Below are positions 19,426 through 52,860 of a stretch of 64,000 bases of DNA, piece by piece. A model generated the notes under the pieces. It ran no database searches and was not told the origin of the DNA. It saw only the letters and a list, made by a program, of their open reading frames with translations. Position 1 is the first letter of the stretch. Every line of letters starts with the position of its first letter. A program made the position numbers and the translations under genes. This DNA is from Cenarchaeum sp. (lineage in GTDB: Archaea > Thermoproteota > Nitrososphaeria > Nitrososphaerales > Nitrosopumilaceae): NCBI GenBank assembly GCA_965206845.1, contig OZ242221.1:1312001-1376000 (forward strand). The letters run 5' to 3'.

Positions 19426-19549
19426 CGCATGCCGCCTCCGCATCCCTGCATGTGCTGGTACCTGCGCCCGAGACACGATTCCATGCCGTGGTGCCGCATG
19501 CACGGTGCACGCCTGCCGCCCATTTGAGTCCTCCCACATCCACACCGCA

Positions 19550-19984
19550 TCATCCGTCCCGGCGGAGCGACTCGAGCAGCTCCCTGTAGGTGCTCTGCAG
19601 ATCTACCTTGCGGTACACCGGCGTGAATATCTTGATCCTGACGGGACTCTGCTGGAGCAGCTTCAGTCTGCCCTGGACAAACTCCTGCCTGTCAAAGCGC
19701 AGGTATATTCCGGAACCCGAGACAAAGAGATCCATGTCCTCCAGTATCTCCTGAAACTGCCCATTCTTCATGCGCCGCACCATCCTGCCGACAAACCTGC
19801 TGGCCTGCCTTCTGGCAATCTTGGCGCTCAGAACCGTGATGGGGTTCTCAAAGTGCCCGGTCTGGTGCGACACGGCAAAGTCGTCCTTGTGCAGGTCGTA
19901 TATCTCAAAGGCATCAAAGAATTTTGTGGAATCCTCTGTGGCGTGAAGTATGACATCAATGCTAACTTCCAGCCTGTTTGCCAT
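19550..19984 (-). CDS. archaeal RNA-binding protein (DUF54-like)
   Basis: HATED, GHFENPI and YLRFDRQ motifs. Confidence 0.8.
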   Translation of the reverse strand: MANRLEVSIDVILHATEDSTKFFDAFEIYDLHKDDFAVSHQTGHFENPITVLSAKIARRQASRFVGRMVRRMKNGQFQEILEDMDLFVSGSGIYLRFDRQEFVQGRLKLLQQSPVRIKIFTPVYRKVDLQSTYRELLESLRRDG

Positions 19985-20001
19985 CTTGTGACTAGGCTAT
20001 G

Positions 20002-21850
20002 GGGAGTTATATACAAAAGTTACCAGAACCCTTGCCTTTTTTTGGCGCTCTGGCGATCCCTCCCATGCTTGCCTCTCGCATGTTGTTCGCGGAGCGCGCG
20101 AGAGCAATCCCGCGCTGGAATCTCGCGCCTTGGGACGACGTTCCCCGCCGCTCTGCCGTCGCCTTGACGGCAATGTTGTACGCGACATTGATGTCCGCGT
20201 TGATGTCGTTCTTACACCTGTGGTTCGTGCAGTGAAACTCCCCCTGCGATATCCGGGAGTCCTTGTCCCTGCGGCTGCAGACGTGGCATGTTGTGCTGGT
20301 GCCTCTGGGGTCGACCGTTATGATCATCACGCCGGCGTTCGCGCATGCGCCCTCAATCCGCATTTGGAACGTCCTGGGACGCGAGTACGCCATCTCTCGG
20401 TTGAGGCCGGTCTTGGCCGAGCTGCCTTTGCCTTTGGCAGTCATGTTCTTGACTTTCAGATCCTCGATGACCACCGTGCCGGCGCCCTCCGCCACCTTCT
20501 TTGACGCGTGCCTCTCCCAGTTGGTCTGCCTGTTGGCGACCTTTTCCCTCTTCTTCTGGATTCTTCTTTGGAGCTCCTTGTAGCCTCTTGACTTTGGCTT
20601 CCTTGGCCTGTCGCGCCTGGCATTCCTGTTGATGCTGCTAGCATTGTCCTGCTTGCCGTTCGCGTTGCCATCGTGGCCGCCGCCCTTGCCGTTCTGCCTG
20701 ATGCGCCTGTTTCCGCTCCCGCCGCGCTTCCGCGAGAGCTCCGAGTACATCTTCGATATCTCATCACCCTTCGTCCTCCTGCAGCCGTCCGGAATGTCGT
20801 GGAACGTATGATGACCTGTATCCAAGTCGACCGTCGTTGCGCCGTGGACTATGCCCATGTCGACTCCCCTGATGACCGCATATTCTGATGGCTTGGGCGC
20901 CTTTATCCCGACCTGGATGTGGAGGCGGTACGTCCTGTGGCGGTCCTTTGTGAGTCTGGTTGTCTTCTTGGTCGTCTCCACCAGCTGGAATGAACGCATG
21001 TCAAGCCCATCCACGTCACCATGCACCTTCACGGTGCTTATGCCGGGAAGATGCAGCAGGCCGCCGCCCTTGGACACGGGACTCTGAAAACACAGAGAGC
21101 TTGCCTTCCGTCCTTCCTCCTGAGCAGGTCGCCCTTGTGGCTCCACCTATTCCTCTTGTTGCTCCACTTGTTAGGCGGCAGGTTTGCCGCAGTGCCGATG
21201 TCTGGAATTCCCTCCTTTTCCCTGTCGTGCCTGGCTAGGTTTTTCCACATTATTTTGTTGTAGCGCTTGGTGGCGTTTGACTCCATGAACCTTTTCACGG
21301 CGTCCAGCCCCTGCCGGAGGCCGGTCCTCTGCACCCTGCTGTCACAGGCCTGCCGGAGTCCGACCGCCTGAGCGTCGTCATCACGGACAAGCCATGTGTT
21401 CGCGTTCCTCCATTTGGTGAGCATGCCGTCAAGGTCAAATTTGGTTATTCTCGGGTCGCCCAGAACCTTCCGGACGGGCATGTTGTACGCCCACCTCTGC
21501 TGGTCCATGTGGCGCGATATCAGCTTTGACAGATCCCCGGACTGGTCAAAGTCCACTTTTATCGTGCGGACCATGATGCCCTTCCTTGCGCGCCTTGGCC
21601 CCTTTTTTGGCGCCGGCGCGGTTACGGTTGCCATGATGGGTTTCATTACCGCATGCAAATGTCAAATGTGTATAAAAACACCGCGACTATACCATGCAGA
21701 CCGTCCGCACCGGCATGGGCATCAATGCCATTATGCCTGCCCATGCGGTTCCCGCCGTCCAGATTGCCGCGCCGGTATCGCGCAAAGGCAGCGCGTGAAA
21801 AGGAGCGCCAAAAAAGGCAGGGGTTTTGGTTACTTTTGTATGTAATTCCC
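20002..21850 (-). mobile_element. TnpB-encoding element bounded by ~49-bp imperfect terminal inverted repeats, no TnpA
   Basis: 20002-20050 matches the reverse complement of 21803-21850 with 5 mismatches and 1 indel; flanks AGGCTATG / GGGTTATG. Confidence 0.8.
20007..21637 (-). pseudogene. tnpB: TnpB-family RNA-guided endonuclease, split by one frameshift near 21080
   Basis: N-part RWAYN (ORF 21038-21658); C-part RuvC GVDMG, VIEDL, NADIN and zinc finger TSTTCHVC...CTNHRC (ORF 20007-21146); start uncertain. Confidence 0.88.
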
Positions 21851-21853
21851 GGG

Positions 21854-22465
21854 TTATGCCTCAAGGAGTGTGATCTGCTGTTGCGCCGTCTGCACCAGCT
21901 TTACCTTCTCCAGCCCAACATGCCTCAGCCGGACCAGCTTCTTGCCTGCCGCCATTATGTCCGAGTTGATCTTGCCGTAGCATGTGGCCTGCACGAACTG
22001 CGCGATGGTCATCTCCGGCACGGACTTCTCTATGACCTCCTTGGCGATCAGCCTGAGGGCGCGCATTCTTGACGTGTTGAGCTGGCGGTGCGTCAGTACG
22101 AGCACCTTGATTCTAAAGGTATACTCGTCCTTTGTCCTGACGTCCATGATTAAGTTGATCCGGGACGAGCCGCGCCGCACTAGGCTGCGCAGGTACTCCT
22201 TGGCGTACTCGTATCGCTTGAAGATGCTTGTGGCCCGATCCCCGTCAATGTCGTCGATCTGAAAGTAAATCTTGTACTGGTTTTGGGAGGGATCCCCCTT
22301 TAGGATATCGTGCAGGGTTACCTCGATTACTCTGCCTTTGGCACCCTCCTCGCTGGTAACGGGAATGTATGCCACAAAGACGTTTCTGAACGAGTCGGGA
22401 GCGTATACGGTAATCCATTTCTTCTCCCGCCACTTGTCCTTCACTCGTGTCTTTCGGCGCGCCAA
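21854..22465 (-). CDS. rps3ae: 30S ribosomal protein S3Ae (eS1)
   Basis: KDKWREKKW and YLRSLVRRGSSRI motifs. Confidence 0.95.
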   Translation of the reverse strand: MARRKTRVKDKWREKKWITVYAPDSFRNVFVAYIPVTSEEGAKGRVIEVTLHDILKGDPSQNQYKIYFQIDDIDGDRATSIFKRYEYAKEYLRSLVRRGSSRINLIMDVRTKDEYTFRIKVLVLTHRQLNTSRMRALRLIAKEVIEKSVPEMTIAQFVQATCYGKINSDIMAAGKKLVRLRHVGLEKVKLVQTAQQQITLLEA

Positions 22466-39617: not shown

Positions 39618-39952
39618 ATTACTTTCACTTTACCGTACCATAAAGTATACTGGTATATAAAATTTTAGAGCGATCCGGAGCGCGGATTCCACTTCCACCT
39701 CCCATTCAGGCACAAAGGTACACACCGTGTGAAGTCCCTGCATCCGGTTCGACACGGCCGATGATCCCATGCATCCCCTGACTGCCATGGGTATGCGCGC
39801 AAAACCGGCAGATCTTCAGGCAGATCACGACCGCACAGAGCAGCCGGCGCGCATTAGCTGCACCATCTTTCATTCGGGCATTGGGATATACACCTAGACG
39901 AATCCCTGCGCTCGGTTCTGTGCGGCAGGCGACGCCGGATCAACGGCTGCCG

Positions 39953-41161
39953 GGGGTTGGTGCGTAATTCTCCGAACCGCCTAGACCAGTCCGATACGTT
40001 CAATGATCCGCGATCTCCCGCACGCGGCAATGAGCGAACACAACAGACGGGAAGGATACTGGCAGTACTATGAACTGGCAAAGGAAGTCGAGGCACCTAG
40101 TCTGAAGAGGACGCTGATCGAGATAATCCGGGAGAACCCTTGCCCGCGCCGAGAAAACGGCAACAGGGGCCGTCCCCCGGTTCACTCCAAGGAGAAACTG
40201 GACTTTGCCTGTCTGCTGATGATGGCAGGCAACAACACCTATCGCGGAGTCGAATCGGACCTGCGAGGCATGCGGACACCATGGGACAACGAGCCCGTCC
40301 CGGACCATACCACACTGGTCAGGCACCTCCAGACGATACCGGCAGACTGGCTCGATCTGATCGTGGCCGAGACGGCCCGCCGTTGCATCAAGGAGGCGGA
40401 CGAGGCGACGGGCCCGCTGGGAGCCGACAGCAGCGCGGCGGAGACCACTAGGTACGAATACGTCGAGAGGCCAAGCAGGAAGGAGCGCGACTTCGTCGAG
40501 ACACGCCAAAAGACCTACTGGAAATACCACATAACGGCCATCTTGGGCCTGCAGATCGTGCTGGCGGCGTTCACCACGCCCAGCAACATCAACGACACGA
40601 CCATGCTTCCAGTCATGCTGGCTGAGATCAGGCGTCGCGGGTTTGACTTTGCGGGGAACTTCTTTGACGGGGACAAGGGGTACGACTCTGACTACAACTG
40701 CGAGCTGCTGTTCTGGATGGGCATGATCCCCAACATCAAGCAACGGAAGGATGCCGTCAACCGTGGCAAGTCGCACAGGAGGAAGGCAGCTGGCATGTTC
40801 AGCGATAGCGAGTACAGAAAGAGGGCCCTGATAGAGGGCATCTTCGGGGCCGAGGAGACCCGGCGGCACCAGCTGCACTGCCGGTTCGTCCGGAAGGACA
40901 ACCGGCGCCTGTTCGCCAAGGGAAGGGCGATCGCCTGGAACATCCGGGTCCTCAACCGGTTCGAGTGCGCCAACCGGCTAAACATACCAATACCCTCCTA
41001 CGGTGGCATGGCGCACGTGGAGTGCGCCTGATGATCCGACCCGTCAGTAGCTGATCACGGCGTGCGGGCAACAAAAGCCCGACACGCACCAAAGCACCGC
41101 CGGTGAAGATGCGGTGGGAGACACACATGAGCAGGACGGAGCAGAATTACGCACCAACCCC
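39953..41161 (+). mobile_element. IS5/IS4-like element, copy 1 (1209 bp)
   Basis: 19-bp TIR GGGGTTGGTGCGTAATTCT; 9-bp TSD CGGCTGCCG. Confidence 0.95.
40003..41031 (+). CDS. DDE transposase (IS5-like), intact
   Basis: PDHTTL, ADSS, DGDKGYDS and YRKRALIEGIFG motifs. Confidence 0.92.
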   Translation: MIRDLPHAAMSEHNRREGYWQYYELAKEVEAPSLKRTLIEIIRENPCPRRENGNRGRPPVHSKEKLDFACLLMMAGNNTYRGVESDLRGMRTPWDNEPVPDHTTLVRHLQTIPADWLDLIVAETARRCIKEADEATGPLGADSSAAETTRYEYVERPSRKERDFVETRQKTYWKYHITAILGLQIVLAAFTTPSNINDTTMLPVMLAEIRRRGFDFAGNFFDGDKGYDSDYNCELLFWMGMIPNIKQRKDAVNRGKSHRRKAAGMFSDSEYRKRALIEGIFGAEETRRHQLHCRFVRKDNRRLFAKGRAIAWNIRVLNRFECANRLNIPIPSYGGMAHVECA

Positions 41162-48591: not shown

Positions 48592-48637
48592 CCTGGACCT
48601 GCTACATAGCGTGTCCCTCACGGTTCGGGGTAATGCC

Positions 48638-49846
48638 GAGGTTGGTGCGTAATTCTCCGAACCGCCTAGACCCGTCCGATACGTTCAATGATCCGCGATC
48701 TCCCGCACGCGGCAATGAGCGAACACAACAGACGGGAAGGATACTGACAGTATTATGAGCTGGCAAAGGAAGTCGAGGCGCCTAGTCTGAAGAGGGAGCT
48801 GATCGAGATAATCCGGGAGAACTCTTGCCCGCGCCGAGAAAACGGCAACAGGGGTCGTCCCCCGGTTCACTCCAAGGAGAAACTGGACTTTGCCTGTCTG
48901 CTGATGATGGCAGGCAACAACACCTATCGCGGAGTCGAATCGGACCTGCGAGGCATGCGGACACCATGGGACAACGAGCCCGTCCCGGACCATACCACAC
49001 TGGTCAGGCACCTCCAGACGATACCGGCAGACTGGCTCGATCTGATCGTGGCCGAGACGGCCCGCCGTTGCATCAAGGAGGCGGACGAGGCGACGGGCCC
49101 GCTGGGAGCCGACAGCAGCGCGGCGGAGACCACTAGGTACGAATACGTCGAGAGGCCGAACAGGGAGGAGCGCGACTTCGTCGAGACGCGCCAAAAGACC
49201 TACTGGAAATACCACATAACGGCCATCTTGGGCCTGCAGATCGTGCTGGCGGCGTTCACCAAGCCCGGCAACATCAACGACACGACCATGCTTCCAGTCA
49301 TGCTGGCTGAGATCAGGCGCCGCGGGTTTGACTTTGCGGGGAACTTCTTTGACGGGGACAAGGGGTACGACTCTGACTACAACTGCGAGCTGCTGTTCTG
49401 GATGGGCATGATCCCCAACATCAGGCAACGGAAGGATGCCGTCAACCGTGGCAAGCCACACAGGAGGAAGGCGGCCGGCATGTTCAGCGATAGCGAGTAC
49501 AGAAAGAGGGCCCTGATAGAGGGCATCTTCGGGGCCGAGGAGACCCGGCGGCACCAGCTGCACTGCCGGTTCGTCCGGAAGGACAACCGGCGCCTGTTCG
49601 CCAAGGGAAGGGCGATCGCCTGGAACATCCGGGTCCTCAACCGGTTCGAGTGCGCCAACCGGCTAAACATACCAATACCTTCCTACGGTGGCGTGGCGCA
49701 CGCGGAGTGCGCCTGATGATCCGACCCGTCAGTAGCTGATCACGGCGTGCGGGCAACAAAAGCCTGACACGCACCAAAGCACCGCCGGTGAAAACGCGGC
49801 GGGAGACGCACATAAGCAGGACGGAGCAGAATTACGCACCAACCTC
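48638..49846 (+). mobile_element. IS5/IS4-like element, copy 2 (1209 bp)
   Basis: TIR GAGGTTGGTGCGTAATTCT; 9-bp TSD GGTAATGCC; near-identical to 39953-41161. Confidence 0.95.
48688..49716 (+). pseudogene. IS5-like transposase with premature stop
   Basis: TGG in copy 1 is TGA at 48745-48747. Confidence 0.88.
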
Positions 49847-51434: not shown

Positions 51435-52860
51435 TAGTTAGTTTCACAACCTAGGTCTTAATGGCACCTCCTTGATCCAAGCGCGGGCGCTTGCGACAAC
51501 TCTACGTTCATGCCCCTGCGATCGCCTCCCGTGCCACCGCCAACAGCCTGTTGTACATGTTGATCCTTATTGCGATCTCCTGGACGATGTTTTCCATCTT
51601 TACCGCGTTCACGGAACCGCCGAACATCCGCTTGAGCGACGAGAACACGATCTCCACCAGCCACCGCCGGCCGTAGCCGACCCGCCTCTTCCAGTCCTTC
51701 TGGTTCTGGACGCGCTCGCACTCGTCCAGCGCGGCGAGTCTTTTCGGGCCGGGATCGCTACCGCACAGCTGATCTTGGGCGGCCAGGCCGCGCGTCCTGC
51801 CCACCCCGCCGGCTCTGCTGTTGGCGTTCTTCTTTATCCTGATGAGCGGCACTATTCCCAGATTCTTGCAGTATTCAAATATCTGCCTCGTATCGTATCC
51901 GGCATCTGCCCGCAGCTCTATCACAGACTGCCCTCCGGCATGCATTGCAGGGCAGAAAGGCAGCATGCCGTACCGTTCTGCGGATCCCGCGGTGTCTGTG
52001 GCCCTCGTGCCTCCCGCTGCGGATCTTTCGGCGCGACTCCCGGCCTCCGCGGCATCTGTACCCTGTGCCTTGGCTGCCCCCTTCGCCAGGACCCCCGCCC
52101 TGAGGCTCTCCGAATCCAGGCCGAGCGCCTCCAGCGAACCGTCCACCAGATCCTTGAACTGGGACGAGTCGCCCTTCCGCTCGTCCGTTACGCGGAACGC
52201 CAGGATCTCCCGGGTCTCTTGGTTTATCATGGCGCTCAGCTTGATGAACCCGAGCGCCTTCCTGTGCTTGTGGTGTATCCAGTCGCTTCGCGTGGCCGGT
52301 GCCAGCCCGGTGGCGTCCGGTATCAGGCAGAGAACGTCGTTGCCGTTCCTGACCGTGGTTATGTTGTCTTCCTGCCGTATCTCCATGGCATTTATTCTCC
52401 GCCACAGGGTGACATGGTCAGGGGCATCCTCCTCGCCTAGGGCCGATTCGGCCATTCCCTGGCACATGCGGTACGGCAGGGGGCCGTGAATGGCCCGTAT
52501 TCCCGCGATAGACATTATGACGGTGTCGGGGTAACTGTAGGGGCGCCCGTTCTTGTTCATGTTCATGCCCTCAAGCTCCCTGTCCGAGCTGGGATCCTTC
52601 GTCAGATGTAGCAGCTTTCCCATCTCCACGTACCTGGCGTCGTTCTGGGTGTGGGTTATCTTCAGTCGCGATTTCTGTTTGATCGGGCCTGTCCCGGTTT
52701 TGTCCATGGATGTGACACCGTTGATCTGATCCTAGTACTTTTCGGATTAAAACAGTCAACCATCAGCTTGAATTCTGTTGGCCTCTGGGAGTCTGGCATG
52801 CGGGATAGCCTGCTTGAGGCGGTGATGCCTTGGTAGAAGACAATGTTGTGAAACTAACTA
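51435..52860 (-). mobile_element. IS5-family element (1426 bp)
   Basis: Perfect 16-bp TIR TAGTTAGTTTCACAAC; 8-bp TSD GATTCTTG (51427-51434, 52861-52868). Confidence 0.93.
51508..52707 (-). CDS. IS5-family (IS903/ISH1-like) transposase
   Basis: GRPYSY, PDHVTLWRR, DATGL, ADAGYD and WKRRVGYGRRWLVEIVFS motifs; start uncertain. Confidence 0.9.
   Translation of the reverse strand: MDKTGTGPIKQKSRLKITHTQNDARYVEMGKLLHLTKDPSSDRELEGMNMNKNGRPYSYPDTVIMSIAGIRAIHGPLPYRMCQGMAESALGEEDAPDHVTLWRRINAMEIRQEDNITTVRNGNDVLCLIPDATGLAPATRSDWIHHKHRKALGFIKLSAMINQETREILAFRVTDERKGDSSQFKDLVDGSLEALGLDSESLRAGVLAKGAAKAQGTDAAEAGSRAERSAAGGTRATDTAGSAERYGMLPFCPAMHAGGQSVIELRADAGYDTRQIFEYCKNLGIVPLIRIKKNANSRAGGVGRTRGLAAQDQLCGSDPGPKRLAALDECERVQNQKDWKRRVGYGRRWLVEIVFSSLKRMFGGSVNAVKMENIVQEIAIRINMYNRLLAVAREAIAGA

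Follow-up and report, generated by a model that had tools for sequence, protein, structure and literature searches.

In a 64,000-nt stretch of the Cenarchaeum sp. genome (contig OZ242221.1, positions 1,312,001 to 1,376,000; hereafter the window), a tnpB gene lies inside a 1849-bp element (20002-21850 in window coordinates) that is bounded by long terminal inverted repeats (TIRs) and flanked by an 8-bp target-site duplication (TSD). This segment is very probably a non-autonomous derivative of an IS1595-family DDE transposon, with tnpB and the scaffold of a guide RNA (omega RNA) as its cargo, moved in trans by a transposase that is encoded elsewhere. The TnpB elements have TIRs, target duplications and tips shared with IS1595 elements, and one of them was co-mobilised with an IS1595 transposase gene as a composite; from these features we infer the action of an IS1595 transposase in trans on the TnpB elements.

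The inverted repeats proposed in the initial annotation of the window are real. Gapped alignment of 20002-20050 with 21803-21850 (49 vs 48 nt) gave 5 mismatches and one indel, and a repeat search returned the arms in two parts (20002-20042 with 21810-21850, 41 nt, 88% identical; 20038-20050 with 21803-21815, 13 nt, 100%). The score of 65 was the highest for any inverted repeat in 19500-22400, while 200 dinucleotide shuffles gave 22.5 ± 2.0 and never exceeded 28. At the tnpB 3′ end (‘RE’, 20002-20050), the outer 13 bp are the family end motif, here GGGAGTTATATAC, with one change compared to GGGAATTATATAC; the tip at the tnpB 5′ end (‘LE’, 21803-21850), read inward, is GGGAATTACATAC. The minus-strand tnpB is the sole Pfam-supported gene between the arms (Cas12f1-like_TNB, 2.2e-12; OrfB_IS605, 3.6e-8), and the annotated GVDMG, VIEDL and NADIN motifs and CxxC...CxxxxC zinc finger were confirmed. 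The single frame of about 530 aa was not: the gene is split into an upstream piece (21038-21658, 206 aa from the listed TTG) and a downstream piece (20007-21146, 379 aa; RuvC-I GVDMG, RuvC-II VIEDL, zinc finger, RuvC-III NADIN) by a frameshift within 21069-21088, where the frame switches between ...FRVP and VSKGGG... compared to intact copies. This copy is either a pseudogene or contains an assembly error. Translation likely starts at ATG 21646 or 21634, with a TATA-like TTTTTATACA ahead as the putative promoter, and the stop codon falls inside the terminal repeat, at 20007.

The window segment is an insertion with an 8-bp target duplication. The two 8-mers next to it, AGGCTATG at the tnpB 3′ end (19994-20001, plus strand) and GGGTTATG at the tnpB 5′ end (21851-21858, overlapping the rps3ae stop codon), agree at 6 of 8 positions. 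The decayed duplication suspected earlier is genuine, and AGGCTATG is identical to the natural empty-site sequence. This empty site was recovered from an RNA library (run X19), in which a 664-nt contig (record 17; ~97% identical) joins 19997 to 21855 and omits 1857 nt, the 1849-bp element plus 8, its joint carrying the sequence of the 19994-20001 copy. The occupied junctions were bridged by DNA contigs from two other runs. The rps3ae stop codon and the ATG of the following gene are 1 nt apart in G001, a genome of the same genus, and 3 nt apart in G002, of the same family. Between these two genes, the window copy represents an old insertion, with a frameshifted tnpB and two changes in its duplication.

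The element belongs to a family that is dispersed in the genome of the window organism (G000; complete, 1.65 Mb, 99.99%-complete), where 15 elements with both ends were found, plus fragments. All 30 ends start with GGGAATTATATAC or a version of it with one or two changes and, past the tip, the two ends of a single element match across 24 to 128 nt. Perfect 8-bp duplications flank 10 of the 15 elements, while the other five show 1, 1, 2, 3 and 7 mismatches. A single long tnpB frame (543-685 aa) was present in 12 copies (an intact copy lies, for instance, at genome 411159-413076), the exceptions being the window copy and c129, both frameshifted, and c870, which lost its 5′ half to a nested insertion sequence (IS). 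All TnpB homologues in G000 belong to the GGGAATTATATAC-tipped family, with no other TnpB lineage present. The end motif recurs as inverted pairs, mostly with TSDs, as the initial annotation had proposed to check, both in G000 and in 18 elements of relatives, and the motif was found at both ends in 15 of 15 copies rather than at the tnpB 3′ end only, next to an IS605- or IS607-type left end. The annotated lack of a TnpA also held: neither the Y1 transposase model PF01797 (control search positive in 6 of 14 genomes) nor the serine recombinase model PF00239 had a match in G000. A DDE_Tnp_IS1595 transposase is encoded in none of the 15 copies, the window element included, and it is for this reason that we file the element as a non-autonomous derivative and not as an autonomous IS.

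Several other properties of the G000 copies were recorded. Although the copies are mutually only 73-87% identical, the 8-bp duplication is perfect at 10 of 15. Diverged lineages may each have inserted not long ago, or some other cause may have kept the flanks conserved. At L011 (genome 1075256-1077418), both tips are present and the flanking 8-mers (TTTGGTTT and TAGCAAAA) differ at 7 of 8 positions, which suggests a rearrangement between copies after insertion. In L014 (genome 1049606-1051551) and L006 (1188043-1189924), the inverted repeat is ~128 nt long and the promoter-side end holds a large part of the predicted guide-RNA scaffold in inverted form, so that these two elements could yield outward-reading RNA from both ends. 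Tip-motif pairs only 318, 386 and 369 bp apart were found at L070 (G135:C1:1710543-1710860), at L071 (G169:C1:562158-562543) and in G000 (genome 1178387-1178755), respectively; these are likely miniature deletion derivatives, and the G000 pair keeps TnpB C-terminal remnants.

Elements with the same tips, 1.4-1.6 kb in length, were found in four genomes from two other genera, with TnpBs 29-34% identical to those of G000. Of the 18 TnpB-only elements in these relatives, 11 have perfect 8-bp duplications and 3 have duplications with one mismatch; in the minimal elements (1434 bp), TnpB is the sole protein. In one relative (G135), the tip motif was counted 20+24 times, compared to 0+1 for the reversed control. 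A single TnpB protein used as a query for related loci returned no match, while a profile built from 8 TnpB sequences retrieved 13 loci, each of which lies in a record with the title ‘MAG: Nitrosopumilus sp.’.

The same tips also bound IS1595-family transposase genes. Members of this family are described as usually flanked by 8-bp TSDs (PMC8101967). In a sample of 301 genomes at class level, an IS1595 transposase was found at E <= 1e-30 in 13, several of them with 4-7 copies, and we compared 21 transposase loci from 8 related genomes and G000. The exact 13-mer was present upstream of the transposase at 6 of these 21 loci; 4 more (L112, L113, L114 and L123) carry variants with 2-3 mismatches, ~35-65 bp upstream of the open reading frame (ORF) and reading inward. 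One relative (G221) holds two complete IS1595 element copies of 2131 bp, with both tips, perfect 8-bp duplications and no TnpB. In G135, a 2509-bp composite consists of an IS1595 transposase unit (1116 bp), a 6-bp spacer and a TnpB unit (1387 bp). A perfect CTAGACCC duplication encloses the composite as a whole, whereas the individual units have none; both units therefore moved as one piece, using the outer end of the transposase unit and the tnpB-side end of the TnpB unit. In G000, one intact IS1595-family transposase was found (genome 27524-28453; PF12762, 119.6 bits; NF033547, 160 bits vs a cut-off of 75), with GGGGCTTATATCGCTGAGTACAC upstream, a tip-like sequence identical to a TnpB-element end at 18 of 23 positions. 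A second, degraded copy with 2 stop codons is preceded at 63 bp by the exact 13-mer. In 6 G000 TnpB elements, the promoter-side end, GGGAATTATATAGTTAAGTGAAC, is by eye a close match to the end next to the transposase in an IS1595 element of G129. Together, the matching ends, the 8-bp duplication and the composite support the earlier suggestion that a DDE or other transposase may mobilise the element in trans.

A number of observations weigh against this assignment. The second end of the intact G000 transposase was not found within 2.5 kb; its tip is a variant, and the protein shares only 62% identity with the degraded copy, which is the one bearing the exact tip. No G000 element carries a transposase in cis, and among the 33 two-tipped elements tabulated (15 in G000, 18 in four relatives) there is 1 transposase-TnpB composite, whose transposase gene contains a TGA. 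Other multi-copy IS1595 elements in G135 carry unrelated TIRs, and two genomes with TnpB elements (G291 and G238) had no PF12762 match. Finally, the divergence of the G000 copies means that there was no recent burst of the element.

The locus of the intact G000 transposase (L109, genome 27524-28506) is single-copy, with short CACTTTTGAAC repeats downstream, and may be an immobilised transposase source. Methyltransferase-like ORFs adjoin same-tip IS1595 transposase genes at L122, L131, L136, L137 and L112 (in the relatives G170, G221 and G129). The proteins of L122 and L112, the two that were scanned, match adenine-methyltransferase models below the cut-off, and that of L122 also has an HNH-like stretch. 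Since several transposase genes are trailed by putative DNA methyltransferase genes, this IS1595 group carries passengers; these cargo transposons are presumably larger, their far ends lying beyond the retrieved flanks.

Alternatively, one of the IS5-family transposases, of which G000 has many, could move the element. IS5-family elements at genome 1450123-1451548 and 1363435-1364860 do make 8-bp TSDs, TnpB has been reported with the IS5-group transposases ISL2 and IS1031 (PMC13565253), and in G291 an IS5-family transposase gene adjoins tnpB between two GGGAATTATATAC tips. However, the IS5-family TIRs (TAGTTAGTTTCACAAC, AACTCTGTTTCCTAATTAT, TAGTGTGTTGCATAATTCC and GGGGTTGGTGCGTAATTCT) are unrelated to GGGAATTATATAC, and the IS5-type genes within TnpB elements (c870 in G000, L068 in G291) have inverted repeats of their own, which identifies them as nested insertions, so that we regard this explanation as very unlikely. 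The 5.9-kb tip pair in G291 is a TnpB element broken up by IS5-, IS110- and IS481-type genes, of which the IS5-type gene was the one checked for its own ends.

The IS5-like transposase in c870 was rejected as a partner of the family, since it belongs to a separate 1.2-kb IS that is nested there with a deletion. This IS has its own TIR, GGGGTTGGTGCGTAATTCT, and makes 9-bp target duplications; its seven copies are 95-98% identical and encode a 342-aa DDE_Tnp_1 transposase. Two of them lie in the window, at about 39950-41160 and 48634-49846 (genome 1351948-1353161 and 1360634-1361846). The copy nested in c870 has no duplication of its own and replaces the 5′ half of the c870 tnpB. The window also contains a 1426-bp IS5-family element (51435-52860; genome 1363435-1364860) with the TIR TAGTTAGTTTCACAAC and the 8-bp duplication GATTCTTG, whose twin lies at genome 1450123-1451548. 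A further candidate, the 107-aa transposase C-terminal fragment at the end of c490, was discarded because, by eye, it is a nested remnant that has inverted ends of its own together with an 8-bp repeat. At L007 (genome 489344-491987), the promoter-side end is broken, by eye, by a ~540-bp IS remnant that has GGGGCYGGTAAGTT as its inverted ends and lies between copies of a GCCGCCGC repeat; the remnant encodes a 107-aa transposase C-terminal fragment without a family match.

It is likewise very unlikely that TnpB, a nuclease of RNase H fold, mobilises the element itself or creates the 8-bp duplication by its own staggered cut, with the likeness to IS1595 being secondary. Such a role would agree with TnpB being the sole protein of the minimal 1434-bp elements, with the presence of elements in G291 and G238 where no IS1595 transposase was matched, and with a target motif (see below) that is oriented relative to tnpB even when the terminal 30 nt of both ends are nearly identical (0-3 differences in L140, L142 and L145). 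Yet the same tips and 8-bp duplication bound the G221 transposase elements that lack TnpB, the outer end used by the G135 composite is that of its transposase unit, and no TnpB is known to catalyse strand transfer. That the element is an ordinary IS200/IS605 or IS607 element, its repeats stemming from two insertions or from subterminal hairpins, has practically no likelihood left: TnpB is typical of these groups and gave weak, sub-threshold IS607_TnpB and IS200_TnpB matches, but G000 has no Y1 transposase or serine recombinase, both tips are present in 15 of 15 copies, and the reading is refuted by the TSDs (10 of 15 perfect) and by an empty site that differs by exactly the element plus 8.

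Returning to the IS1595 derivative, its cargo was characterised at the level of protein and RNA. The RuvC triad (D275, E412 and D504) and the four cysteines of the zinc finger do not vary among the 14 aligned TnpBs (29-78% identity), and on the basis of these residues the diverged set is predicted to be catalytically intact. TnpB matches the prokaryotic model NF040570 end to end (115 bits), while a PDB sequence search returned generic TnpB/Cas12f matches alone (best 9j09_A at 4e-10) and was uninformative on clade. For the RNA, the last 140 nt of the tnpB-sense strand were aligned for 28 elements. The consensus consists of a terminal hairpin (20014-20035 in the window), a nearly invariant A-rich linker and a longer-range stem. 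In the proposed structure, 91.6% of cells are paired, and double changes occur in 33 cells compared to 9.0 ± 2.5 in shuffles (0 of 500 reached 33) and 4-12 with slid partners; many of the pairs are G-U pairs, which are possible on the tnpB-sense strand only. The tnpB-side end hence fits a predicted omega-RNA scaffold that ends at the tip, with the flank serving as guide. In the window, covariation places the 3′ part of this putative scaffold at 20002-20140 on the minus strand, where it overlaps the tnpB end and would stop at the element tip, with the guide in the flank beyond.

Some points speak against this RNA. The covarying hairpin overlaps coding sequence and sits within the TIR, and an Rfam scan of 19800-22000 gave no match at E <= 1. 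Metatranscriptome contigs (X19, X20) covered the region patchily, and their depth peak at ~20043-20134 shows the same 10-15x ratio as the DNA runs; this peak says nothing on expression because repeat collapse is seen in the DNA runs too.

Insertion sites were then read relative to the cargo gene, with elements oriented by tnpB and the base before the duplicated 8-mer read off on the promoter side. A G occupies this position (-1) in 13 of 13 G000 elements and in 9 of 14 elsewhere (22/27 overall), compared to 6 of 27 on the opposite side (Fisher p = 2.7e-5), and the 8-mer itself begins with T in 20 of 27. In G000, the A+T content is 71% for the 8-mers and 43% for the genome. The bias persists in several elements whose two ends are nearly identical over the terminal 30 nt (L140, L142 and L145) and is weaker at the transposase-proximal ends of IS1595 elements (5/12, by eye). 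The oriented K-G | T bias may be a target-adjacent motif (TAM) of TnpB, with selection through homing on empty alleles, or an asymmetric preference of the transposase. On the first reading, IS1595 transposase would insert the element near-randomly in AT-rich 8-mers, and only insertions with a TAM immediately before the duplicated 8-mer, on the tnpB-promoter side, would be driven to fixation by TnpB, which would use its flank-derived guide to cut the unoccupied chromosome copies. We put this forward as a tentative and rather doubtful interpretation, against which it counts that the G/T bias could reflect transposase preference instead.

In the mechanism that we propose, an IS1595-family transposase from elsewhere would bind the GGGAATTATATAC tips and insert the element by an 8-bp staggered cut, which would account for the 8-bp target duplication. 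A guide would be transcribed from the flank just past the tnpB-side end (beyond 20002), and TnpB with its RNA would recognise and cut the unoccupied allele (TAM, duplicated 8-mer and flank). Recombinational repair would then copy the element back in. Such homing would account for the orientation of the insertions that survive, in which G directly precedes the 8-mer on the side of the tnpB promoter. If the TAM reading is true, the family represents an archaeal, Fanzor-like partnership of an RNA-guided nuclease with a Merlin/IS1595-type DDE transposon, and homing would be shown to work despite target duplications.

Both genes that flank the window element lie on the minus strand. Ribosomal protein S3Ae (rps3ae, identified by Pfam; 21854-22465) was parted by the insertion from a PF01877 ‘RNA binding’ gene (DUF54-type; 19550-19984). 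A TATA-like TTGTATATAA in the tnpB-side tip (window 19984-20020) is centred ~27 nt before the ATG (19984) of the PF01877 gene, so that this tip, or read-through of the predicted guide RNA, may now drive the gene that was cut off from rps3ae.

TnpB, from which Cas12 descends, is a compact nuclease for genome editing whose biology is known almost wholly within IS200/IS605 and IS607 elements, which excise scarlessly. The family described here shows TnpB riding another transposon superfamily, IS1595, which makes target duplications. According to PMC13565253, IS200/IS605 and IS607 elements have neither TIRs nor TSDs. Unlike IS200/IS605 elements, the IS1341 group included, the G000 elements have TIRs (15/15) and 8-bp TSDs, and the genome has no Y1 TnpA; unlike IS607, they have TIRs and TSDs, and the genome has no serine-recombinase TnpA. 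Some features are shared with archaeal IS1341-type elements (e.g., in Haloquadratum), which PMC3119063 describes as tnpB-only elements with many diverged copies per genome: the G000 copies too are tnpB-only, numerous and diverged, with none near-identical. Those elements, as described there, have subterminal palindromes and no TIRs or TSDs, in contrast to the TIRs and 8-bp TSDs of the G000 elements.

As a class, TIR-bounded TnpB elements of this kind are not new, since TIR-bounded, DDE-linked and solo prokaryotic TnpBs were described in 2023. In their main text, Altae-Tran et al. report six DDE-associated TnpB branches with inverted terminal repeats, name IS630 as the DDE family and describe solo TnpBs with the same ends that are presumably moved in trans (PMC10691335); a later review adds ISL2 and IS1031 as TnpB-linked DDE transposases (PMC13565253). 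The window element belongs to this kind. It shares with the DDE-associated TnpBs of that paper a prokaryotic TnpB within inverted terminal repeats and a tnpB 3′ end less than 250 bp from the element end (here the stop codon lies inside the TIR), and with the solo TnpBs ends that resemble those of transposase-bearing elements, suggesting mobilisation in trans. It differs from the DDE-associated TnpBs described there in that the IS1595 transposase is nearly always in trans. The term ‘IS1595’ is absent from the main text of PMC10691335, whose supplements list the six DDE branches and may include an IS1595-type one, and a literature search judged by title found no IS1595-TnpB link in print.

Compared to the IS1595 family itself, the element shares the 8-bp target duplication, the terminal inverted repeats and the habit of carrying passenger genes (methyltransferases in relatives), and differs from autonomous members in that it has no transposase and its passenger is an RNA-guided nuclease. 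Siguier et al. are said to have included members with passenger genes in their 2009 account of the family. The ends of the ISNwi1 subgroup, reportedly given as ‘ggnnatTAT’ with 8-bp repeats in the ISfinder tables, would fit GGGAATTAT; a literature search on ISNwi1 returned no paper giving an end consensus.

The family provides natural insertions by the dozen, along with empty sites, a composite that moved as one piece and a target motif with a fixed orientation. It is therefore a tractable system for the study of guide-RNA homing with a DDE transposon, and it also supplies diverged TnpBs with conserved catalytic residues and a defined, predicted end of the RNA scaffold. The same homing question is raised by the Fanzors of eukaryotes. 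Merlin transposons are the eukaryotic kin of prokaryotic IS1595, and a literature search for Fanzor together with Merlin gave, by title, nothing on this topic. Bao and Jurka (2013) and Saito et al. (2023) reportedly described Fanzor1 elements as cargo of DDE transposons with TIRs and TSDs. Like Fanzor1 of eukaryotes and giant viruses, the window element carries a TnpB-family nuclease as cargo in a TIR- and TSD-bearing transposon of the kind moved by DDE transposases, with a predicted guide RNA that reaches the transposon end; unlike Fanzor1, it resides in an archaeal host, as judged from its gene context (rpS3Ae), and its protein matches the prokaryotic TnpB model.

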